A stretch of DNA of 64,000 bases from Escherichia coli (GTDB lineage Bacteria > Pseudomonadota > Gammaproteobacteria > Enterobacterales > Enterobacteriaceae), in the NCBI RefSeq assembly GCF_003018235.1, contig NZ_CP027437.1; one strand, 5' to 3'. Shown in pieces: positions 1 to 14,800 of the stretch. A program made the translations under genes and the position numbers. The notes beneath the pieces were generated by a model. The model worked only from the letters and a program-made list of their open reading frames with translations. It made no database searches and was not told the DNA's origin. The number at the start of each line of letters is the position of its first letter. Within the stretch, counting starts at the first letter, position 1.

Positions 1-873
1 CCACCGGGTCATGTACATACGACTGCGTGTTCAGCCCGCCGCTCAGTTTCAGCGGATCCTGGCTTAAATACTGCCCCGTTCCGGCATCGTAGTAGCGGTG
101 TAAATTATACCACAGCCCGCTCTCCTCATCCTGCCACTGGCCCATGAAGCCCGCATCACAGCTTTCACGCTCACTGTCCGGCGAGTCGTTTGCTGCCAGC
201 CCCCACAGGCTGCGGTGTTTCGTCCACACCTTCCGCCCGTTTGCGCTGTACATCTCCTGCGGTACACCGTCCGGGCCGGTCACTATCGGGTAAAAATGGC
301 TCCGGTCATCATTCGCCGCCCGACGTTCCTTCGCCAGCAGTTCAAATCCGCCACGGTAGTGCCACTGCTCCCGCAGCGCCGGGCTGCCGTCTGCATACCG
401 CTTCTCGCTCGCCGACAGCGCCATGCCCTGCCACTGGTAGCGCACTTCACTGATGGCCTGTTGATGTCGTTTCCACGTCGCCCAGATAACGCAGCGTTTG
501 GCAGTTCTCCGGCCAAAGGCGTCGTAGCTGTACTGCCATACCTCACCGTCTGGTGTCTTTATCTCGCGCAGACGGTCAAAATCGTCCCAGCGGTAGCGCC
601 ACTCCTGTGGGCGAAAGCCGCGTTTTTGTTCTGTGCGCTTTGTCACCCTGCCGCAGGCGTCGTATTCGTAGCGGCTGTCGCCCGCCTGAGTCACACATTC
701 ACGGCTGTACTGGTGCTGCGACAGAATGCCGTTTATCCGGCTTTCCGCTATCTGCTCGTTTACCGTATAGCGATAGCGTTCTTCCTGCGCCGGGCCGTCG
801 GCGTCCAGCCGCAGTACACTGGTTATCTGGTCGCGGGCATCCTACTGGTAGCGCGTTTCCCGCTCCGTACGCG
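1..873 (-). pseudogene. Orphan rhs core fragment (3' part of Rhs YD-repeat core; no start codon; continues past window start toward its own C-terminal toxin domain)
   Basis: Nucleotides 1-873 are a near-identical direct repeat of 1703-2578 inside the main rhs gene; the reverse complement of the first bases encodes ...LSGGLNTQSYVHDPV, i.e. the start of the DPxG cleavage motif. Homology stops abruptly 38 bp downstream of the putative rhsI stop. Confidence 0.75.
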
Positions 874-910
874 TTTATTAGAAATCAAAAGATACCGATA
901 AAGATTCCCT

Positions 911-1267
911 TCATTTTTTTTCAAGCAACTCCTCATAAAGCCACATAACTAACCATTTACTATTTCTTGAATGTTCTAACATATAATGTCCAGACAAATA
1001 TTTAACAAATTCGCCATCATGAAGAGAAATATTTTTATTCATACTGTCAGAAATTATATTCAGAGTCCCTGACTGTACAAAAATATATCCCGTCATCATT
1101 GTTGTAGGTAAAGACAGCGCAGTTTTGTGAATTTTACTAACAATTCTTGAATTATTTACATTTAAACCAACTGTTAATCTAACATTATCTTCAGTGAGAG
1201 GGATGTCAAAATAATCTGACCACTTATAGATATGAAAGTCACTTAAATTTAGAAAAAACTCTCTCAT
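911..1267 (-). CDS. Putative Rhs immunity protein (RhsI-like), AT-rich
   Basis: Small AT-rich ORF immediately downstream of the rhs toxin C-terminus. Start taken at the internal ATG (MREFFLN...) 20 bp after the rhs stop; the longer ORF in the track (to 1384) overlaps rhs. Confidence 0.55.
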   Translation of the reverse strand: MREFFLNLSDFHIYKWSDYFDIPLTEDNVRLTVGLNVNNSRIVSKIHKTALSLPTTMMTGYIFVQSGTLNIISDSMNKNISLHDGEFVKYLSGHYMLEHSRNSKWLVMWLYEELLEKK

Positions 1268-1286
1268 ATTATTCTCATATAAAAGC

Positions 1287-4200
1287 TTAAGGAAAAATAA
1301 CCCCGTATTCTTCAAACGCAGCTCTAGCCGCTGCTTCAGATGCAGCGTTCTGAGTTCCAGTATTTCCGAAATGATAATGACCACTGTGAGGGGCTATATC
1401 AGTACCGAATCGTCCATTCACAACAGTAGCCTCTCCCGCCGCAAGAACTGGTTTTCCATTTGCAATTGCAGCATGAGAAATTTCTATCCCATCTTGCATT
1501 TTTGGTGCAGTTAATAGAGTGCCATCCTCAAGAAGGACATACTTTATATCGCCAGCTTCATCAGCCATATCTGCAAAACGTGGGTCTGATGGTTTCATCG
1601 GTTCAACACCGGCCTCTCTCATTGCAGCCAATTCCTCATCTAAATGTTCCGGTAATTGATTTTTAAACGGGCACCCAATAAAACCCCACGGATCACACCA
1701 GCCCACCGGGTCATGCACATACGACTGCGTGTTCATCCCGCCGCTCAGTTTCAGCGGGTCCTGGCTTAAATACTGCCCCGTTCCGGCATCGTAGTAGCGG
1801 TGTAAATTATACCACAGCCCGCTCTCCTCATCCCGCCACTGGCCCATGAAGCCCGCATCACAGCTTTCACGCTCACTGTCCGGCGAGTCGTTTGCTGCCG
1901 GAAGTCCCCACAGGCTGCGGTGTTTCGTCCACACCTTCTGGCCGTTCGCGCTGTACATCTCCTGTGGTGCGCCGTCCGGGCCGGTCACTATCGGGTAAAA
2001 ATGGCTCCGGTCATCATTCGCCGCCCGGCTTTCCTTTGCCAGCAGTTCAAACCCGTCACGGTAATGCCACTGTTCCCGTAGCGCCGGGCTGCCGTCTGCG
2101 TAGCACTTCTCACTGATGGAAAGCGCCATGCCCTGCCACTGGTAGCGCATTTCACTGATGGCGTGGCCTTGCTGCTTCCATGCAGCACGGATAACGCAGC
2201 GTTTTGCGGTTCTCCGGCCAAAGGCGTCGTAGCTGTACTGCCATACCTCACCGTCTGGTGTCTTTATCTCGCGCAGACGGTCAAAATCGTCCCAGCGGTA
2301 GCGCCACTCCTGTGGGCGAAAGCCGCGTTTTTGTTCTGTGCGCTTTGTCACCCTGCCGCAGGCGTCGTATTCGTAGCGGCTGTCGCCCGCCTGAGTCACA
2401 CATTCACGGCTGTACTGGTGCTGCGACAGAATGCCGTTTATCCGGCTTTCCGCTATCTGCTCGTTTACCGTATAGCGGTAGCGTTCTTCCTGCGCCGGGC
2501 CACCGGCGTCCAGCCGCAGTACGCTGGTTATCTGGTCGCGGGCATCGTACTGGTAGCGCGTTTCCCGCTCCGTGCGCGTTTTCGACCACACTTCATGCCC
2601 GGTCAGGCGGCCCGATTTATCCCACGCGTAGCGGTGTTCGCCCAGCGGTCGCCACGACGCCACGCTCTGGTGACCGCCAGCCAGCCGCTCTGCGCCCTGT
2701 TTTTGCCATGCCGTACGCCCGCAGGCGTCATATCCCTGCTCCTGCATATACACCGCATGGTTCAGCGGCGTCTGTGCCAGCCAGCTTTCCTCATTCTCCG
2801 GGCGGTAACGTCTGCTTTTTTCCAGCCCGGCGGGGGAATGACCGAAGTCCATCCGGTGGCCGTTGCTGCGGTAGCCCATGAGAATGCCCGAAGCATCGTA
2901 TTCTCTCTGTGTTTCCCCGTCCGGCGTTGTGGTGCCCGCCAGCCGTCCGGCTTCGTCGTAACGGTACTCCGTGCGCTGGCCATCCTGCTCTTCCGCCACC
3001 AGGCGATGACGTTCGTCCCACTCCAGTTTTACCTCGCTGGTCAGCGTGTAACCTGCTTCACTGGCATCACTGCGCTCATACACCTGCGCGCTCACCATCC
3101 GGTCATAATGGTCGTACTGATAACAGAGTTGCTGATGCTCGCCGCTGATGGTCGTCACCCGGCCATAGCCATCCCGCGCATAGCGCCATACGCTACCGTC
3201 CGGGCGGTGTTTTTCTGCCAGTCGGCCCTGTTCATCACGGATATAGACGGTTCTGCGTCCGGACCAGTCATCCTCCCCGGCCATCTGGCCCGCTGCATCA
3301 TAGTGCAGCCGCCACTGCTGGTTGCCGCTGCGCGTAAGCTGCGTCAGCCTTGCGGCACCGTCGTAGTTGCAGAGTATCCGCTGCCCGCCCGCGTCTTCCA
3401 CTTCCCGCAGCAGGTCAAATGCCCCGTGGCGGTAGCGCGTGGCCTGCCCCATGGCCCCGGTGTGGAGGGCGATTTTGCCTTCACCGTCATAGCGGAAGGT
3501 TTCCACGCCGCCATCGGCCCGGATAACCGCACTCAGTTTCTCATGCGGGTTATCAGCACCGGGGCGGTACTGCCAGTTCATGCTGCGCCCTTCCGCATCC
3601 ACCAGCCCCGTCAGCCGCAGCCAGCGGTCTTCCGTGTAATGGGTCGTGCGGCCTTCAGCATCCGTATGGGAAAGCAGGCCACCGTGGGCGCTGTAGCCCC
3701 ACTGTTCGTGGCTGCCGTCCGGGTATGTCACTTCCTTCAGCAGACCGTCTTCGGTATGACGGTACTGCCATTTTTGCCCGTTCACTTCCCGCCGGATAAG
3801 GTTCCCTTCGGCGTTATAGCTATAAGCTGCCGTGGTGTGATGGTCACGGTAGGCCGTTACCTGGCCGAACTCATCCCGCTGCCATTCACGCTTGCGCCCG
3901 TTCTCGTCCGTTTCGCTCAGGATACGCCCGGCGTAGTCGCGTTTTATCTGTGTGATACGCCCGCCCGGCTGGCGGATACACAGCGGCTGGTCGTATTCGT
4001 TACGCTCCCATTCAGTGATACGCCCCAGCGGGTCACGCTGTTTTTTCAGCAGCCAGGATTCATCGAACCACAGCGTGGTGGTGGCTCCGGTGGCGTCGGT
4101 ATAATCGGTTCTGCGCTCATCAGGGAAGTAGCGGAAGGTGTCGTTATACAGGCCTTCCTGTGTGCCTGTGGCAGTCACCCGGCCTTCATCGTCATAGCGC

Positions 4201-5813
4201 AGGTGGAAGTGCGTCGGGCCATTGTCGCGCCAGGAACTCAGCCAGCCCTGTTCGGTATAGGTATAGTGCAATGCACCATTAAAGCGGGTCTGTACATCAC
4301 GCAGCCGCTGCTCATCGCCGTGGCTGATATAGTCGTAACGCACCAGCTCGCTGCCGTCTGACTCGTCGGTCACACGGAATATCTGCCCCTGCGGGCCACA
4401 CCTCACCCGCAGACTCAGGCCGCTACTGTGGGTTACGTTTGTCAGGTGGCCGATGGCGTTATAGGTGAAGCGAATTTCGTTGCGGTTGCGGTCTTTTATT
4501 ACTGTTAGCCGCAGACGACGTGCGCCGGGGGAGATGGGCGTAAAGATATAACCCAGTTGTGAGTATTCGTCGAAAATAATAGCCCGCTCACGGTTTCCCA
4601 GGAGGCGATAGTGCGGGACAAGCAGGTTACGGCTACTGTATGGTGCCTGCTCCGTGGAGTAGGCCGGACATAGCCCCTCAGCATCAAAGTAGGTGACGTT
4701 TTTCCCGTTGCTATCGAACTCCAGAAACTGCGACCAGTTACACAACCAGCGACTGCCCAGCAAACCACTAACCGGATGTCGGCCTGTATAAGCACGTTTC
4801 AGCGTCAGCGGTAAAATATGCGAATAGTTGAAATCAGTTCGGTAATCCAGATATTCACCCGTTCCGGTATCCACCGGATCGCTGAACCCCTGACTGATAC
4901 GCTCATTGGCGGCTCTGTTTAACTGCTTTGCTCCCCATAGAGCTGTTAACACCTCCAGACTTGATACAACAGATTGTTCCAGTACCGTCATATCTGCATT
5001 AATCGGCCCATACTGTCCGGTTGTCTTATCAGCCGTGATGGTTTTACATCCTTCCTGAATAACTGCCGAGCAGGTAATTTTATGGCCCTTACGCGCCAGC
5101 GGCAGGCTGTTGACGGAAATAATTTTGCTCCCTTCCACTATCTGCGGAGGAGGACTGCCCGGATCCTTACTACATTCAACCGGATCAGTGACGCGAGCTA
5201 CCGCTTTTCCTTCAAAAAAAACATTAGGTGAGCCTTCTACAATCTGCCCGGTTTCAGATGCCCAGCGGGAACCAATTACCATCGCTGCACCACCGACAAA
5301 TCCACCAGCTAATCCCCCGGCCCCGGCAGCAACGGTGGCAGCAAGCACACCCAATGCGGCGCCCCCTGTAGCGACAACCAGAGCCCCCACTGCAATCCCT
5401 ACGATAAGTCCACCGATTAACCCACCAATAGCACCCAGAAAGGAATTGTTATGAACAATGTGATGACCCACACACGCCGGTATATCTGTTGGGCCGGAAA
5501 CAGCGTGATCTTTACCCCAGGTATCCATGAACCAGTCACCTGCTTTGGTGCCCAGCCATCCCCCCAGCATCCCGCCAGCCAGTCCGGCAATCAAAGGGCC
5601 TCCAAATCCTGCAACAGCTTTGGCTATTCCGGCTGCACAGGTATTTGCTGCGGCGGCTGCCAGTCCCACCTTTGCCGTTGCTCCCACCATGCTGACAGCC
5701 ATTATTCCAGTACTGGCAATATGTCCTGTGGTAGCAATACTCTCCACTGTTTCGGCATTACTGTCCCGTTGGTCCAGCTCCGCTAACTTCTCCTGCGCGC
5801 TTTTTTCCGTCAT
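1287..5813 (-). CDS. Rhs-family T6SS effector: N-terminal Gly/Ala-rich transmembrane region plus PAAR-like domain, YD-repeat shell, DPxG autoproteolysis motif (VHDPVGWCDPWGF), about 130-aa C-terminal toxin domain of unknown type
   Basis: 1508-aa ORF. Many YD repeats (YDxxGR-type), PAAR-like region (VTDPVECS...KGHKITCSA), C-terminal DPVGWCDPWGF followed by a divergent tail. Preceded by a DUF1795/EagR-like gene. Confidence 0.9.
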   Translation of the reverse strand: MTEKSAQEKLAELDQRDSNAETVESIATTGHIASTGIMAVSMVGATAKVGLAAAAANTCAAGIAKAVAGFGGPLIAGLAGGMLGGWLGTKAGDWFMDTWGKDHAVSGPTDIPACVGHHIVHNNSFLGAIGGLIGGLIVGIAVGALVVATGGAALGVLAATVAAGAGGLAGGFVGGAAMVIGSRWASETGQIVEGSPNVFFEGKAVARVTDPVECSKDPGSPPPQIVEGSKIISVNSLPLARKGHKITCSAVIQEGCKTITADKTTGQYGPINADMTVLEQSVVSSLEVLTALWGAKQLNRAANERISQGFSDPVDTGTGEYLDYRTDFNYSHILPLTLKRAYTGRHPVSGLLGSRWLCNWSQFLEFDSNGKNVTYFDAEGLCPAYSTEQAPYSSRNLLVPHYRLLGNRERAIIFDEYSQLGYIFTPISPGARRLRLTVIKDRNRNEIRFTYNAIGHLTNVTHSSGLSLRVRCGPQGQIFRVTDESDGSELVRYDYISHGDEQRLRDVQTRFNGALHYTYTEQGWLSSWRDNGPTHFHLRYDDEGRVTATGTQEGLYNDTFRYFPDERRTDYTDATGATTTLWFDESWLLKKQRDPLGRITEWERNEYDQPLCIRQPGGRITQIKRDYAGRILSETDENGRKREWQRDEFGQVTAYRDHHTTAAYSYNAEGNLIRREVNGQKWQYRHTEDGLLKEVTYPDGSHEQWGYSAHGGLLSHTDAEGRTTHYTEDRWLRLTGLVDAEGRSMNWQYRPGADNPHEKLSAVIRADGGVETFRYDGEGKIALHTGAMGQATRYRHGAFDLLREVEDAGGQRILCNYDGAARLTQLTRSGNQQWRLHYDAAGQMAGEDDWSGRRTVYIRDEQGRLAEKHRPDGSVWRYARDGYGRVTTISGEHQQLCYQYDHYDRMVSAQVYERSDASEAGYTLTSEVKLEWDERHRLVAEEQDGQRTEYRYDEAGRLAGTTTPDGETQREYDASGILMGYRSNGHRMDFGHSPAGLEKSRRYRPENEESWLAQTPLNHAVYMQEQGYDACGRTAWQKQGAERLAGGHQSVASWRPLGEHRYAWDKSGRLTGHEVWSKTRTERETRYQYDARDQITSVLRLDAGGPAQEERYRYTVNEQIAESRINGILSQHQYSRECVTQAGDSRYEYDACGRVTKRTEQKRGFRPQEWRYRWDDFDRLREIKTPDGEVWQYSYDAFGRRTAKRCVIRAAWKQQGHAISEMRYQWQGMALSISEKCYADGSPALREQWHYRDGFELLAKESRAANDDRSHFYPIVTGPDGAPQEMYSANGQKVWTKHRSLWGLPAANDSPDSERESCDAGFMGQWRDEESGLWYNLHRYYDAGTGQYLSQDPLKLSGGMNTQSYVHDPVGWCDPWGFIGCPFKNQLPEHLDEELAAMREAGVEPMKPSDPRFADMADEAGDIKYVLLEDGTLLTAPKMQDGIEISHAAIANGKPVLAAGEATVVNGRFGTDIAPHSGHYHFGNTGTQNAASEAAARAAFEEYGVIFP

Positions 5814-5843
5814 CTGTTCGTCCTTCCCGCTGAACTGGCTGGG

Positions 5844-6275
5844 TTATTTATCCTGCGGCATTCCAAAACAAAAATTCAATAATGCTCCCCGCATCGCTTT
5901 ACGATCCTCCTCTGCCAGCGCCTGTGTTGAGGAATAGGTCAGCGTCAGTACTTGTCGCTCGTTCAGAATTACCAGCAGCAACTGCTGTATCATCACCCCC
6001 TTGTTATCCCAGCTAAATTCCCAGTATTCCGCCGGGCGCTCCTGTACATGACAGCGTTCTTCGACGGTGAACACCATTTTCGACAGTTCGGTACGGAATT
6101 TCTTTTTCTGCACCGCCAGATAGTCATCAAACTGCGCACCATCCGGCAATATTTCACGGGTAACAACAACATTAGCCCCGGCAATCGCACTTAATACCGG
6201 TGTCAGAATATTCATACTGCTGTCCTGCCAGTTTCCTGGCAGGGTGAAATGTCCTTCATTAATTAGATATTGCAT
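5844..6275 (-). CDS. EagR-like (DUF1795) effector-associated chaperone for the downstream PAAR-Rhs
   Basis: 143 aa; N-terminus MQYLINEGHFTLPGNWQDSSMNIL matches the typical DUF1795 start pattern (recalled). Sits directly upstream of an rhs with an N-terminal TM region. Confidence 0.7.
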   Translation of the reverse strand: MQYLINEGHFTLPGNWQDSSMNILTPVLSAIAGANVVVTREILPDGAQFDDYLAVQKKKFRTELSKMVFTVEERCHVQERPAEYWEFSWDNKGVMIQQLLLVILNERQVLTLTYSSTQALAEEDRKAMRGALLNFCFGMPQDK

Positions 6276-6480: not shown

Positions 6481-6930
6481 CTAATGGTTTCTCAAAAAAA
6501 TCTTTGCGTAATTAGGATTATTTAACTCTAAGTTCACCACATTAGATTTAAAATTATAAAAATCCGCATCTCTATCATCCTCTGTAACCTTTGAATCAAC
6601 CGTCGACCACACATTCGTATAAAAACTACACTCATGCTTTCCTGGCGTAATATGGTAATCTCTGGCAATTTGTACATAGTCCCCCACCTTCATTTCTCCG
6701 GGAGAGATTTTGTAATATTCCCCTTGTCCAAGGTTGTACATTACACCTGAATAACGAATCTTCTTGCCATCACATTCAACACTCAATTGATCGGAGCTCG
6801 GATATTTACCTTGAGATATGTACCTGACATCTATATATAATGGAATTTCACCATTATTTTTAACACGTACAGCAACATAAACGTCATCTTCTTTGGGTAT
6901 AACATCCACAATAACCATGTAACATGGCAT
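6481..6930 (-). CDS. Hypothetical protein downstream of vgrG; candidate immunity/partner for the VgrG C-terminal domain
   Basis: AT-rich ORF starting just after the vgrG stop; no obvious signal peptide; start codon uncertain (ATG at 6930 or 6918). Confidence 0.4.
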   Translation of the reverse strand: MPCYMVIVDVIPKEDDVYVAVRVKNNGEIPLYIDVRYISQGKYPSSDQLSVECDGKKIRYSGVMYNLGQGEYYKISPGEMKVGDYVQIARDYHITPGKHECSFYTNVWSTVDSKVTEDDRDADFYNFKSNVVNLELNNPNYAKIFLRNH

Positions 6931-6946
6931 CCATAAATTAAGCCTT

Positions 6947-9784
6947 TTATTCAAAATAACGTTCAAAGTTATAAGCACTTTGTAATGAGGCCCGCTTACC
7001 CTTTTTAGCTAGATCTATACCACCACTTCTTAAACCCTCATCAAAACTTCCGAGCACATCATAAAAATGTGACATTTCATGAATCAAAGTTATGACTTGT
7101 GAATCACGACCGTCCAGGGGATCGTCAATAAATTTATTTCCAAGATAAATGGTATGGGTATAATCTCCATCATTAACTCTTCCATGAACATTAACATCCA
7201 TAAATTCAAAATTTTGGTACTTAATCCCCTCATTAATTTCAATTTCTTTTTTTACAGCGTTTAAAATTTTATTCCTGGCTGCCTCATCATCAACACCGAA
7301 TATATTTCCAAAACGCTCTTTATCGTTATCATTCCAACGAATCAACTCATCTCTTGCTGATTTTAATTTTTTACGCTGCGCTTCAAGAACAAGTTTCATA
7401 TCATTTTCACTGATCCTTTTCTCCTCTATCATTTCATAAACAGGATTTCCATAATTATCTGTAAGAGGTTTTCCATTATATCCAATTATAGCTACTCCAT
7501 TACCCGGCCCTGATGTAGAAAAATCTCTAATTGTATTAATTTTATATTTACCATTTGCGTCACTACCGCCAGGATTCAGTGCCAAGTGAGTAGGTCCATC
7601 AAGGATGATAGTGCCGTCTGAATTCATCACGAGAGTGCTGCTTCCCACAGTCAACGTAATGTTCGTTGCCGCAGTCAAATGAATGGCACCAGATTTTGAT
7701 GTGATGGTAATATCCCCTTCGACAGTCTCCGTGCAGGTTCCCGTTTCTACCGTCACTTCGCGTTTACCCGTTTTCACCGTCAGAGACTGGTCACCTTCTG
7801 TCACAGTAATATCCCGGTTGCCTTTGATGGTTTCGGTGTGCTTACCCTCAACAAATTCTGTGCGATCGATTTTTACCGTAGATGTTTCGTTATGAATGAT
7901 GGTTTTCGTCCGATCTGCCTTTACCGTGTGTGTTTCGTTATTTTTCACGACGGTATTCAGATCTTTCTCCGCAAGAAACCTCACTTCTTCCGCACCTGTT
8001 TTATCGTCAAAGCGCAGCATGTTTCCGTTGGTCGGCCCGCCATACAGCGAGTGGCTGAATATCCCGCTCTGCGACGCCATGCCCGGCAATCCCCACGGCG
8101 GCATGGTGTCCTGGTTATAGGTGCGCCCTACAATGATCGGTAAATCCGGGTCGCCGTTTTTGAAATCCACCAGCACTTCCTGGCCGATGCGCGGGATCTG
8201 GATCATCCCGAATCCTTTCCCCGCCCACGGGTAGCTGACGCGGATCCAGCAGGAGCTGTTTTCGTCATTCTTTCCGTAACGGTCCCAGCCAAACTGGACC
8301 TTCACCCGGCCATATTTATCCGTCCAGATTTCCTGCCCCGCAGGGCCGGTGACGATGGCGCTCTGCGGGCCTTTGGTGTGGGGTTTGCTCAGGGTTCGCT
8401 GTGGGCGGTAAACTTCGCTGGTGGGATGCAGTTCAAACGTGGTGACATAGGTAAAATGCTGCTCCTGACCGCTGTGCTGCGCATTATCCCGTAAAAACAG
8501 CGTGGTCTGTACCAGTAGGTATTCCTGGTTGACCTCTGCCGTTGGATGATTCATCAGCGTAAAGGTGTAACCCGTCATGAGGGTGCGGATATGACCTGCC
8601 CCATGTGCCCGGCTGCCGGGGCTGCGCTGCGCTTCCATACGAATGCGCGTCAGCATCTCGCCTTCGCCCGTAGTGAAGTAATCACCAGGCCATTCATAAT
8701 GCTCGTATTCAGCATGACCGGTATCACGCGGACTAGCCACGGTACTTTTAAGCAGCGAACGAGGCTTCATAAAATCAAAATCGTCCATCACCCACTTTCC
8801 AGTACGTAGCCTCTCACTGGCCGTAATGGTGTGGATAAATTCCTTGTCCAGTTTCAGACCTTCCTGGTGCCACTCCACCAGTGGCGAGTCAGGGCACGCT
8901 TTATGACCATTGATGGCATCCGCCAGCACCAGCGTATGGCTGTTCTCGCTGTGCTCAAACCACCAGTAAATTCCCCACTCCTGCATCAGGCGCTGGATGA
9001 AATCAAAATCCGTTTCACCGTACTGTACCTGCCAGGCACGAGGTGGATAATTTTCCACCAGCCGTTTTTCCACCGGAAAGGAATATTCATCCAGTACTTC
9101 ATCGAGAATATCCACCACGGTTTTATTCTGGAACGCCTTGTAGTCGCTGGTATGGGTCAGCAGCTTCAGCCATGGCTCAATGCGTAATTCATACGTTACC
9201 GAACGGCCCTCATGGCCGACCACCCGCGCTGCCGTCACCAGCCCGCTGATATACCGTTTTTCGCCACCGTCCAGTTCAATACTGACGCACAGGTCTTTGC
9301 CCACCATGGGCTGAAGCGGCAGGTTGGCAGCGGGAGAAACGTAACCCAGGTTCAGGATGTCCGGCGTTTTAAGCTGTACTGTGTAGGAAAACAGATTCCC
9401 AAGTCCTTCCGAACCATTCATGCCTGCAAACAAAAGCAACTGCGGCGGCACCGCGCTACCACTTACTGTGACGTTATGCGCCCCCGGACCACCGGCTGCA
9501 AGCGACGACGCCGCATCCTGAACTGTACCAGCCATATCCGAGATCCCTACTGCAGCAGCGGCAGCCTGCGCAGCAGTTACTGCAGCTTTAACCAGACCTG
9601 ACGGTTCCGGCAACGCACCAAACAGGTCCGCCGCGGCCTGTTCTGCCATCTCCTCGGCGGCACCAGATACATCGGTTACGGCTGAACTGGCGCTTACAGC
9701 ACTACTTTCTCCGGCTATCGGTGGCGTGGAGATAGCTGGCCCACCGTTACTGCCAGATTTATTACTCGTAGATACAAAACTCAT
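6947..9784 (-). CDS. vgrG: VgrG (TssI) spike protein, 'evolved' type, with an AT-rich C-terminal extension containing an HExxH motif
   Basis: 945 aa. gp27-like region ([25 protein letters not shown]), gp5 OB-fold and beta-helix repeats (VKVQFGWD..., TVKxxR repeats). C-terminal about 180 aa is low GC and contains LIHEMSHF. Good SD (AAAGGA) upstream of the ATG at 9784. Confidence 0.9.
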
Positions 9785-11102: not shown

Positions 11103-11834
11103 TTATTTTTTCTCCAGTCGCAAAGCATCCACATACCGCCCTTCGCTGTTCTGCTGCCAGAACCAGCCCTGCCCCTGCTGCGCCTGCGTCAGCATTTTGT
11201 CCGGCCAGCCCGGCCACGGCAGGTGGCGCACACCGGGCAGTTCCACTACCGGCGCATCCGGCAGCCCGGTGAGTTCCCGGCTACGCTGCGGCACACGTCG
11301 TAGGCCGCGCAGCCATTGCGTCCAGCGCTGCCCCGGTCGCCACATCGCCCAGAGCTGGTCGGCCTGCTCTGCCAGTCGCCCGCGCCGTTCCGCCTGTGGT
11401 GCAACCTGCGCCGCCACCAGCCGCGCCAGCCAGTACAGCCAGCCCTGTGTGTCATCCAGGCTCTCTTCCAGCCATTCCCGCCCGGCACACTGGTAAATCA
11501 CCAGTGGCCACGGCCTGCCCGTACTGTCACGCGAGGCGGTCAGTACCCCGGTCAGCCACTCATCGCGCCCACCAATGGGTAAAAATCCCGGCGATAAAAC
11601 AAAGCTCCACGGTAGCGGATGGTGTTCCGGCACCGCCGTTTTCTCGCGCGGTGACAGATGCATCCAACCGTCAGTTACTCCGGTCTTCGCAGCATCCGTT
11701 CCTTCCGGCAGAACAATATGCCGCCCCTGTCCCAGCCACGTCTGCTGGTTCAGCCACGCCTGCCACACCTGCCCTTCGTTCGCACTCACCCGCCAGCGCA
11801 CATAGTCCCGCTGGTCCGGCAGTCTGCCGAACAT
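11103..11834 (-). CDS. tagF: TagF-like (DUF2094) T6SS accessory protein
   Basis: Directly downstream of tssM; N-terminus MFGRLPDQRDYV fits the FGKLPxxGDF pattern of TagF/ImpM. Start chosen at the internal Met to avoid overlapping tssM. Confidence 0.6.
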   Translation of the reverse strand: MFGRLPDQRDYVRWRVSANEGQVWQAWLNQQTWLGQGRHIVLPEGTDAAKTGVTDGWMHLSPREKTAVPEHHPLPWSFVLSPGFLPIGGRDEWLTGVLTASRDSTGRPWPLVIYQCAGREWLEESLDDTQGWLYWLARLVAAQVAPQAERRGRLAEQADQLWAMWRPGQRWTQWLRGLRRVPQRSRELTGLPDAPVVELPGVRHLPWPGWPDKMLTQAQQGQGWFWQQNSEGRYVDALRLEKK

Positions 11835-11863
11835 CGCCGGAGCCGATACCACTGCCCGGCGAA

Positions 11864-14800
11864 TCACAGCGCTCGCTCCGGGCAGGCGAAGCGTTGCAAT
11901 AGTCCGCGATCCACTGGGTCAAAATCCCGTCCGGCGGTGATTTCCAGTATCACCCGCCGACCATCAAAGCTGTACTCCACCTGCTGTGTTCCCCGTACCG
12001 CCGTTTCTTGCGCTTTTCCCGCATCCAGCAGGTGAAACAGCGCCCACGGTCCATTAGTCAGCAGCGTCGAGGTGTCCTGGCGGATGCGCGGGCTGGCGGT
12101 TATTTCCGCCATTGAGCCGTTGCGCGGACCCGGCCAGTTAACTTTCAGCGGCCTGACCGGGCCGTGAGCGTAACGCAGTACCTGGCCGTCAATGTCAATC
12201 ACCAGTTCGGTGATGGCCGGGTCCATATCCACGACGCGGACCTGCATCGCCCATGAGAACTTTTTCCCTCCGTCGCCGTTAAAAAACACGCTGCGGATCT
12301 GTTTCGCCTCCTGAAACGGCGTCAGGTCCGGCCCCTGTAAGGTCATGTTGCCTTCGGTCGGTTTGTAGCGCCACGGATTGCTGGCGGTGTCCGCCTGTGG
12401 GGCCAGTTGCTTCGTCCAGAAGGCATCCAGCACGCCGCCGCTGGCAAAGATACGGTTAAAATCGTCCGCGCTGACCTCCTGCGGGCTGTCGGTGAAGGGG
12501 TAGCGCCCGTCGATGGCGTCGCGGCACTCATCACCGATCACCGCTTCCATCTGCGCGTTCAGCACTTCACCGGTGCCGGCGTTGATTTTTCGCGTTCCCT
12601 GCTGCGTGAGATCCAGCAGAATATTTTTCAGCGGCGCGGGCAGTTTTGCCGCCTCCAGTTGCAGTTTATCCGCCGCAGAAATGCGCCCCGGCAGAGTGCT
12701 CGCAGCCAGCGCACTGTCGGCAATGGTGAGCTGAGTGTAATACTCATTGAGCATCGTCAGCAGCGAATTTAATTGCGGCACGCCGCCGCCCTGCCCGCTG
12801 TCCGTCCGCCCGGAAACCACTTCCCGCAGGGCGGCGAAGCGGTCTTCCACCAGTGATTTTTCCAGCCGCTCTTCCGGGTGAATGTCCTGCAACAGCTTCG
12901 CCGTCTGCACCGCTTTTCCCGCATTGCCGGAGAGCCGGTCCTGCGCGCGCTGGGCCATCTGCTTTTGTCTGGCCTGCGCATCCAGAGGCGGCACCAGCGT
13001 GGTCTGCACCACCACCGCTTTACTCAGGCGCATCAGCGGGGAATCCGGCGAGGCCAGAGTGCGGAGCACCTGAAGGTCATACGCTAGTCCAGGGCTACCG
13101 TCCTCCCCGGCGCTGTTGATGCTGTGAATGCTTGCCAGAAAATCCTGCCATCGGCGAGCATATTCAGCCAGGTACAGACGACGTACCTCACGGGTAACCG
13201 GGAGTTCCTGCCCCGGTAGCTGACTCATCACAATATCAGTCGTTTTTTTTTGCGCACTTTCCCGGCCCATCACCCAGGCGTCGTCCGCTGATGCGGCGGC
13301 GACAAACTCCGACAGCCGTTTGTCGAACAGTTCCCGGTAGCCTTCGCGGGTGAAGATGCCGGGCACGCCCCTGTCCAGCGGCGCGCCATCCGTGCGGACA
13401 AAAACCGTTCCCGCATCCGCGCCCACAGCGCGAACCAGCGAAAACTCCTGCGGTGCTTCGCTCTCCATGGAAGCCAGGGCTCGAGTGTAGATACGCTCAG
13501 TGCTGTTATGGCCGTCAAGGAAGGCCCGCGCCTGGCGGATCAGCCCCTCATCTTTTTCCCAGGGCGAATGCACCACGCGGCTGCCGTCAAACAGGGCGTC
13601 AATATGCTCCAGCACGGCTGCGCGACCGCCAAACTCCGCTACGCTGTCGCGGTTGTCCAGATCGTTCAGCACCCAGGCGTGGATCTCCGCCGCGTTGTAT
13701 TTGTCCTCGTGGTCCTTATCGAGGTTCAGCAGCAGATAAACATGCAGGGCGTCATAGGCGGCTTTGCTGTCCTGACGCGCAATCGCATCTGAAAGCACGT
13801 ATTCCATTCGTTTCACCAGCGGAGGGAGCAGTAGCTGGTCCAGCAGGCGGTCATACAGGGATGCGACACTCTCCATCACCGGCGGGACGCTGTAAAGACC
13901 ATAACGCCAGGCCAGCGGCGGCGAGTCCGGGTCCATCCCCGGCCAGGCAGAGAGCGCCCGCGCCTGATTCAGCAGGGCCGGAACAGGCTGCATAGCAGGT
14001 TTTCCGGTATAGGCTTTGACATCACCATCCAGTTGGGTCGTCCGGCTGGCGATTTCATTCAGATAACCGCTGTTACCCTGCTGGCTACCCTGCATTCCCT
14101 GCCACAACCAGAAAACCAGCGCCAATACCAGCAGATGCCCGCCGGTACGCAGCAGGCGATAACGCCAGGCCCATTGAAGATTCGGCTCCACCAGGTGCGC
14201 TTCGCGGAAGATAAACCGCGTCAGTAGATCGTGCAGGAAATAGCTGCGGTTGCCGTCCGGCAGGGTATGGGATGGGGAATCTGCCTTCCCTTTGATCGCC
14301 CGGACAAAACGCTGCCAGATGCCTGTCTGATCGGCCACCGCGTCTGCCTGCGCCTGCGCGGCACTGGTGAAAAATACGCCGCGCAGGGTGTTGTTAAGCT
14401 GGGTAGCATCAAATTTTGAATCGAGGAAAATCTGTTCAATAGCTTCCAGCAGCGGCGCGCCCAGCGCGGCAAATTCACGCGGGAAGCGGTAGAGCCGCTG
14501 ACGGCTTTTAAGGTCGTACTCTTCCTGCAACCGGGTATCCAGCCCCTGATCCAGCCGCTGTGTCAGGTTTGCCAGTTCCCGGCCACAGAGCGCATGCAGC
14601 GACTGCGGATCGCTGGCGTGACGCCTGCGGCTGTAAGGCAGGGTGAAGCCCCAGACCTGGGCTCGCAGGTGACTGGTCAACCCACGGAAATACTCCGTAA
14701 AGCCCGGCAGCAGATCCATCTTGGTGACAACCAGATAGACCGGAAAACGAATGCCCAGCGTCTCCCGCAGTTCCGCCAGCCGCGCACGCAGAGCTGCACA

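Follow-up and report, generated by a model that had tools for sequence, protein, structure and literature searches.

The closest described systems to the locus reported here are the class I prePAAR Rhs effectors with Eag chaperones, among them P. protegens RhsA/EagR1, Salmonella Rhs1/SciW and E. cloacae RhsA (Ahmad et al. 2020, PMC7773334). In these systems an eag (DUF1795) gene stands directly upstream, and the effector has hydrophobic helices before a PAAR domain, then a YD-repeat cage with a C-terminal cleavage motif (DPxGxxDPxGL) and a toxin that can be exchanged, its immunity gene lying downstream; the prePAAR motif of Eag-dependent effectors is AARxxDxxxH and lies N-terminal to the transmembrane domain (TMD) (PMC7773334). 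Here we describe an rhs locus in a stretch of 64,000 nucleotides (the window) of the Escherichia coli contig NZ_CP027437.1 (assembly GCF_003018235.1). Its rhs effector gene (1287..5813, minus strand; taken from the list of open reading frames, ORFs) is complete, encodes 1508 residues plus stop, and corresponds to WP_250375826.1 in the annotation of E. coli MEI003. We read its product as an ‘evolved PAAR’ effector of type VI secretion system 1 (T6SS-1) that carries a rare toxin/immunity cassette and whose C-terminal tail may be a ribonuclease (RNase), a first-ranked but tentative reading to which we assign a probability of about 0.45.

For the tail, the closest described family is Tox-EDA39C (Zhang, de Souza, Anantharaman, Iyer and Aravind 2012, Biol Direct 7:18; PMC3482391), named for the C-terminus of the plant protein EDA39. 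It was described as an alpha+beta domain with the conserved pattern ‘H, Sx[HS]Y’, one conserved His being located in the N-terminal half and Sx[HS]Y, with a second conserved His, in the C-terminal half. Its members are associated with the type II, V, VI and VII (LXG) secretion systems (T2SS, T5SS, T6SS and T7SS), HINT and RHS, and are distributed over many bacterial phyla, plants, chlorophytes, fungi, dictyostelids and stramenopiles. The authors suggested, as a prediction, an RNase A-like, metal-independent activity, and reported Imm-SuFu immunity proteins with some members, which are not defining for the family (PMC3482391).

Delivery protein and exchangeable cassette

A preliminary description of this DNA, made from the letters alone, had proposed a Gly/Ala-rich hydrophobic N-terminus, a PAAR-like domain, an upstream DUF1795/EagR gene, a long YD-repeat shell and a DPxG motif. 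All of these were recovered, on the minus strand. The eagR-type chaperone gene (5844..6275, 143 residues) lies 30 nt upstream of rhs and matches DcrB/DUF1795 (Pfam PF08786, E 1e-26). A Kyte-Doolittle scan of Rhs revealed two Gly/Ala-rich hydrophobic regions, at residues 26-85 (5559..5738) and 119-182 (5268..5459, predicted transmembrane), and both are N-terminal to the PAAR domain at residues 189-257 (5043..5249; NF033420, E 2.6e-12, 46.7 bits). The PAAR match is partial, covering profile positions 20-89 of 94, and its score is below the curated cut-off for stand-alone PAAR proteins. The YD-repeat shell, or Rhs cage, follows (1869..5042; TIGR01643 YD repeats, E 2e-46; NF041261 RHS core, E 7e-44; GC 59%), and then the Rhs-associated core domain at residues 1316-1377 (1683..1868; TIGR03696, E 1e-17). 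The Rhs autoproteolysis motif DPVGWCDPWGF, of the PxxxxDPxGL type, was found by motif search at residues 1368-1378 (1680..1712), in the stretch VHDPVGWCDPWGF (residues 1366-1378).

The major parts of this locus have the same arrangement as in the class I prePAAR Rhs effectors (PMC7773334), from the eag gene directly upstream, through the hydrophobic helices before PAAR, the YD-repeat cage and the C-terminal cleavage motif, to the exchangeable toxin and the immunity gene after it. Two differences are located at the N-terminus. In place of AARxxDxxxH, the present protein has the degenerate prePAAR-like motif ACVGHHIVH (residues 113-121; 5451..5477, minus strand), found by eye, and it possesses an extra N-terminal extension of ~110 residues with the second hydrophobic region (26-85). 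This N-terminus (residues 26-121, window 5451..5738), with ACVGHHIVH and the extra hydrophobic region, is conserved in 94 complete E. coli genomes and may therefore represent a variant class of Eag-dependent Rhs effector.

By analogy with the class I prePAAR/Rhs effectors (PMC7773334), EagR would shield the hydrophobic N-terminal helices of Rhs, and the PAAR domain would cap VgrG, the presumed carrier being the product of the vgrG gene at 6947..9784. The 130-residue tail would be enclosed in the YD-repeat cage and freed by aspartyl autoproteolysis after DPWGF, and the hydrophobic N-terminus with its TMDs may assist the entry of the tail into the target cytoplasm.

The tail occupies Rhs residues 1379-1508 (1290..1679, minus strand) and starts directly after DPWGF; its length of exactly 130 residues agrees with the rough estimate made earlier. 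At the nucleotide level, the resemblance to other E. coli rhs genes breaks off at about 1669-1684, which is the DPWGF junction. Of 5426 complete E. coli genomes, 94 have the eagR gene and the 5′ end of rhs at ≥95% identity, and only one has the tail with the ORF downstream of it. The GC content steps from 59.3% in the Rhs core to 44.9% in the tail and 29.4% in the downstream ORF. For these three reasons, the tail and the immunity ORF are a rare exchangeable toxin/immunity cassette, swapped into a conserved E. coli T6SS-1 effector. The pattern is not due to chance, since window positions 800-1800 are 100% identical to E. coli MEI003 (NZ_CP071263.1), in which the same genes are annotated. An identical tail occurs in a gull-derived E. 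coli record. As a genomic feature this is an ordinary Rhs toxin/immunity cassette swap, and the architecture would not surprise a specialist.

The tail family and its immunity partners

The preliminary description could name no toxin family for the tail. As far as curated models are concerned this stands: Pfam gave no match to the tail even at E≤10, none of 41 tail relatives matches any Pfam family, NCBIfam and PADLOC returned nothing for the tail, and PHROGs gave one non-significant match (E 0.3). A phage tblastn search found no match, and the best results of sequence and profile searches of the PDB with the tail, HrcQ2 (E 0.026) and nitrophorin (E 0.27), were judged to be chance. The tail does, however, have a large family, for which the description of Tox-EDA39C fits. 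When 1.84 billion cluster representatives were searched exhaustively with phmmer, there were 402 relatives at E≤1e-3 and 186 at E≤1e-10, compared with 4 matches from a word-index homologue search, which is insensitive for this domain. By sequence similarity, the tail is a member of this family rather than an orphan or singleton.

The domain lies within a few residues of the C-terminus in nearly all family members. Its carriers are Rhs proteins (P0011, P0084, P0093), filamentous-haemagglutinin/CdiA proteins (P0022, P0017) and PT-HINT proteins (P0047, P0148); in the Rhs carriers it stands directly after DPxGL and opens with xxF.NQLP. With one genome scanned per species, members turned up in Comamonas, Myxococcus, Sorangium, Streptomyces, cyanobacteria, Chloroflexaceae, Parabeggiatoa and Pseudomonas, but not in the Enterobacterales representatives. 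Seven residues are invariant in all 100 of 100 full-length domains (N7, E16, H69, A81, G82, S99 and H101, in tail numbering), and all seven are kept in the tail of the window. K46 is present in 95% and G100 in 96% of the same domains, and position 102 is Y (51%) or F (49%), the window having S-G-H-Y. Besides these, three metagenomic proteins (P0006, P0008 and P0086) contain two to four tandem copies of a divergent toxin domain (AHTVL ... NS[ND]HY, without the EIS insertion) joined by acidic low-complexity linkers, a layout that is not polymorphic-toxin architecture.

The structure prediction that the preliminary description had proposed for the tail was run with AlphaFold2 (AF2) on a 41-sequence alignment. 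The model is a very confident alpha+beta fold (predicted local distance difference test, pLDDT, 97.5; predicted template-modelling score, pTM, 0.91), in which two N-terminal helices precede a beta-beta-(short alpha)-beta-beta-alpha core; the helices span residues 10-22, 35-42, 69-72 and 108-124, and the strands 45-50, 55-59, 78-87 and 91-96. A Foldseek search of the PDB had no hit with an E value under 0.5. The list of fold hits (values in brackets as listed) contains a Streptomyces protein (11.6), an LXG toxin (10.5), plant ‘calmodulin-binding family proteins’ (10.0 and 8.2), a Salix protein (9.8), a dictyostelid ricin-B lectin protein (9.1), an eCIS protein (9.0), a dermonecrotic-toxin-N protein (8.2), a Legionella protein (7.0), a HINT protein (7.0), a Cryptococcus IQ-domain protein (6.7) and a Tetraselmis C2-domain protein (6.7). 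It was this list that led to Tox-EDA39C.

The tail and Tox-EDA39C as described (PMC3482391) resemble each other in several respects. Both have an alpha+beta fold, a His in the N-terminal half (H69 in the tail) and the Sx[HS]Y motif (S99-G-H101-Y/F in the family); both stand at the C-terminal tip of RHS, T5SS, T6SS, LXG and HINT polymorphic toxins; and both have structural relatives in plants, fungi, dictyostelids and chlorophytes. The relationship to the C-terminus of EDA39 was found as well: EDA39 is At4g33050, a calmodulin-binding protein identical to IQM1, and the plant IQM/EDA39 calmodulin-binding proteins are predicted to have a fold in common with the toxin family. Because H69, S99-G-H101-Y, the carriers and the structural relatives fit the description, the tail can be assigned, on sequence motif and modelled fold, to the Tox-EDA39C superfamily, in a subfamily that has no model. 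Different from Tox-EDA39C as described, this subfamily (F.NQLP ... EISHAVL ... AAGEA ... HSGH[YF]) is without a Pfam or NCBIfam model, and its immunity partners are either cupin-like, of ~110 residues, or helical, of ~180 residues, rather than Imm-SuFu.

The AT-rich ORF downstream of rhs, which the preliminary description took for the presumed immunity gene, is at 911..1267 (minus strand; GC 29.4%), begins 19 nt past the rhs stop and encodes 118 residues. This candidate immunity gene belongs to a cupin-like ‘family A’. The ORFs directly 3′ of related toxins at L002/L003, L004, L005, L006 and L007 are homologous to each other and to 911..1267, the product of which has 30.5% identity to the L005 ORF over 95 residues (48.5 bits). 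A hidden Markov model built from the family A ORFs matches with E values of about 1e-22 to 1e-43, and adds the downstream ORFs of L008 (E 1e-26) and L011 (8e-22). Seven other loci have homologous ORFs immediately after related toxins, and this synteny supports 911..1267 as the immunity gene for the tail, as had been presumed.

The 118-residue protein has no Pfam or NCBIfam match, and a few family A relatives match cupins weakly (Cupin_3, 9e-5; Cupin_2, 8e-4). In its AF2 model (pLDDT mostly >90), eight beta strands come after short N-terminal helices. The sequence, read by eye, has no hydrophobic N-terminal stretch of the kind that points to a signal peptide, as would be expected if the immunity protein were cytoplasmic. 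At least 279 E. coli contigs encode the protein, which also occurs in Pseudocitrobacter and is always named ‘hypothetical protein’. At L004, a single cdiA gene with the toxin domain is followed by three tandem cupin-like immunity copies (11538..12829; 33-38% identity to one another), a homogeneous poly-immunity array.

A second candidate immunity family, ‘B’, is unrelated to the first. It is helical, ~180 residues long (~176-213) and ends in W..R..LP, and most loci of Myxococcus, Streptomyces, Comamonas and cyanobacteria have it behind their member of the same toxin family (L009, L010, L012, L014, L016-L018, L020, L021 and L023, at about 3400-3950 in each; duplicated in L010). A third partner type, of 124-131 residues, was seen in two Pseudomonas loci with truncated or hybrid toxins (L025 and L027, 3375-3770). 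Neither family B nor the third type has a convincing Pfam or NCBIfam match.

Predicted activity of the tail

We propose that the tail is a compact alpha+beta enzyme with a putative active site made up of His69, Ser99-Gly-His101, Lys46, Glu16 and Asn7. Because the invariant set comprises two His, Ser, Lys, Glu and Asn and a metal-binding cluster is absent, its predicted chemistry is that of a metal-independent phosphoryl-transfer hydrolase. Its most likely reaction would be to cut an essential RNA by means of two histidines, in the manner of RNase A, which is the activity that Zhang et al. had in mind for the family; this is ranked first because nucleases have a high prior among Rhs/CdiA tips and because of the His-Lys-His pattern. 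Compared with two-histidine metal-independent RNase toxins (RNase A-like CdiA-CT, EndoU-type and BECR-fold), the tail is likewise a small C-terminal domain on CdiA/Rhs, with the same conserved His...His (plus Lys) pattern and with cytoplasmic immunity proteins. The presumably cytoplasmic, cupin-like product of 911..1267 would bind and block the toxin in sister cells.

Several observations weigh against this reading. The tail fold resembles no RNase fold. The toxin domains are acidic (median isoelectric point, pI, 5.4; pI 4.66 and net charge -11 for the tail of the window) and have no conserved Arg, both of which are unusual for RNA-binding toxins. The assignment to Tox-EDA39C is based on motif, fold and distribution; a literature search found the name ‘EDA39C’ in no paper beyond PMC3482391 and no experimental follow-up; and Imm-SuFu (PF05076) has no match among the downstream ORFs at any locus. 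On the delivery side, a regular-expression search of Rhs for the canonical prePAAR motif AARxxDxxxH gave no match, only the degenerate ACVGHHIVH being present. Finally, when toxin and immunity protein were modelled by AF2 as a fusion with a Gly-Ser linker (eight paired rows), both halves folded, with a pTM of 0.56, and their relative placement was not confident; the model neither supports nor refutes a toxin-immunity complex.

The acidity of the domains bears on what else the tail could do, since acidic toxin domains suit protein or small-molecule substrates better than RNA. With the same delivery and the same family, the tail could be a phosphohydrolase like human 14-kDa phosphohistidine phosphatase PHPT1 (Janus family, PF05005; PDB 2nmm/2ai6) rather than an RNase, which we regard as unlikely, though it is the alternative that holds the only match to a solved structure. 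Such an enzyme would remove the phosphoryl group from phospho-histidine proteins (phosphotransferase-system EI/HPr, NDK, succinyl-CoA synthetase or sensor kinases), or act on a phosphorylated small molecule or nucleotide, with His69 as general base and with the S99-G-H101 loop and Lys46 binding phosphate. The order of the core secondary-structure elements in the AF2 model (residues 45-130) appears to match that of PHPT1. In a non-significant greedy hhalign alignment, IKYVLL pairs with FKYVLI (K46 with K21) and SHA with YHA (H69 with the catalytic H53), and S99 pairs with S94. Against a 94-sequence PHPT1 alignment, however, hhalign gave E 0.076 and a probability of 0.7% (E ~1 in global mode), the single-sequence, family-profile, core-only and global runs were all non-significant, and no family member matches PF05005, so that no significant sequence or profile similarity links the two. 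Two elements of the toxin are additional to those of PHPT1: an N-terminal two-helix segment, in which the invariant N7 and E16 lie, and the other invariant His (H101). PHPT1 itself is no toxin but a housekeeping enzyme of eukaryotes. A phosphohistidine phosphatase as antibacterial toxin is without precedent, a literature search linking it to polymorphic or T6SS toxins having found none, and its lethality is uncertain.

A second alternative, which we consider slightly less likely still, is that the tail is an enzyme with this fold but attacks some other universal target (for example DNA, NAD(P)+ or, by covalent modification, a translation factor), in which case the two-histidine pattern would be misleading. 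The RNase A analogy does not account for Glu16 and Asn7, which are invariant and lie in the helical N-terminal part. Moreover, the family is used against bacteria and against eukaryotic hosts (the Legionella protein, dermonecrotic-toxin-N and ricin-B lectin fusions), for which only a universally conserved target is needed, and the literature search found no biochemical data on the family.

That the cassette is an inactive remnant, an Rhs tip that has decayed or is not secreted and that now has no function, would fit its rarity (1 of 5426 complete E. coli genomes), the orphan rhs fragments and ISAs1 pseudogene nearby, the degenerate prePAAR motif and the existence of a truncated chimeric relative (P0003), but is very improbable given the intact 1508-residue ORF, the presence of all seven family-invariant residues, an intact immunity ORF that at least 279 E. 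coli contigs retain, and an eagR/rhs N-terminal module conserved, with the same N-terminus, in 94 genomes. A pore-forming tail was dropped, the tail being a soluble alpha+beta domain with invariant polar residues.

Genomic setting and significance

All the genes of the locus in the window are transcribed from the minus strand, in the order vgrG, a 165-residue ORF, eagR, rhs, the 118-residue ORF and the start of an orphan rhs fragment. The vgrG spike gene (6947..9784; TIGR03361, E 1e-165) is part of the same T6SS locus, and its ORF is intact, with 945 residues. The C-terminal extension of VgrG (window 6947..7607) has a low GC content of 34.5% and matches an Aspzincin_M35 metallopeptidase domain with an HEMSH motif (Pfam E 1.5e-6; AsaP1 toxic endopeptidase 2x3a, E 2e-4), and by sequence the protein would therefore be an ‘evolved’ VgrG that brings an effector domain of its own. 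The extension is found in only 3 of 5426 complete E. coli genomes. The 165-residue ORF (6481..6978), 3′ of vgrG, has no family match and may be the immunity gene of the VgrG extension. In MEI003, vgrG is annotated as a pseudogene, and its match to the window differs in length by 1 nt, so that the window and the MEI003 assembly are not quite the same sequence.

The orphan rhs fragment (2..694) has 93% identity to Rhs residues 1139-1370 and is annotated as an RHS repeat domain protein in MEI003; its own toxin tail is beyond the left edge of the window. Between it and the immunity gene, a 62-residue hypothetical protein is annotated in MEI003 (window 713..901, plus strand); this call falls in rhs-derived high-GC sequence and is probably spurious. 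The locus of MEI003 is situated between fadE/ivy/yafV and the T6SS genes tagF and tssM, the latter two lying further upstream of the rhs locus. The orphan fragment is followed there by more rhs fragments and a frameshifted ISAs1 transposase (a pseudogene), the usual silent-cassette array for Rhs tip exchange.

The invariant residue set, the two cognate immunity families, the high-confidence fold without a solved homologue and the PHPT1 lead, a structural rival to the published RNase prediction, are additions to the literature consulted. Tox-EDA39C is a large predicted polymorphic-toxin family without a curated profile or solved structure, whose activity is known by prediction; its carriers are Rhs, CdiA, LXG, HINT and eCIS proteins across many phyla, and its plant homologues are the IQM family. 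The present locus, with toxin and immunity gene behind a well-understood Eag/PAAR/Rhs module, is a tractable E. coli entry to the activity and structure of this superfamily. A farther-reaching and doubtful proposal is that the Tox-EDA39C fold is a distant relative of PHPT1/Janus, and that the toxins, the E. coli Rhs tip among them, do not cut RNA but kill through hydrolysis of phospho-histidine, or of a different phosphoramidate or phosphoester, on essential proteins or metabolites. If true, this relation would define a new class of antibacterial toxin activity and would provide the first testable enzymatic hypothesis for the plant IQM/EDA39 calmodulin-binding proteins.

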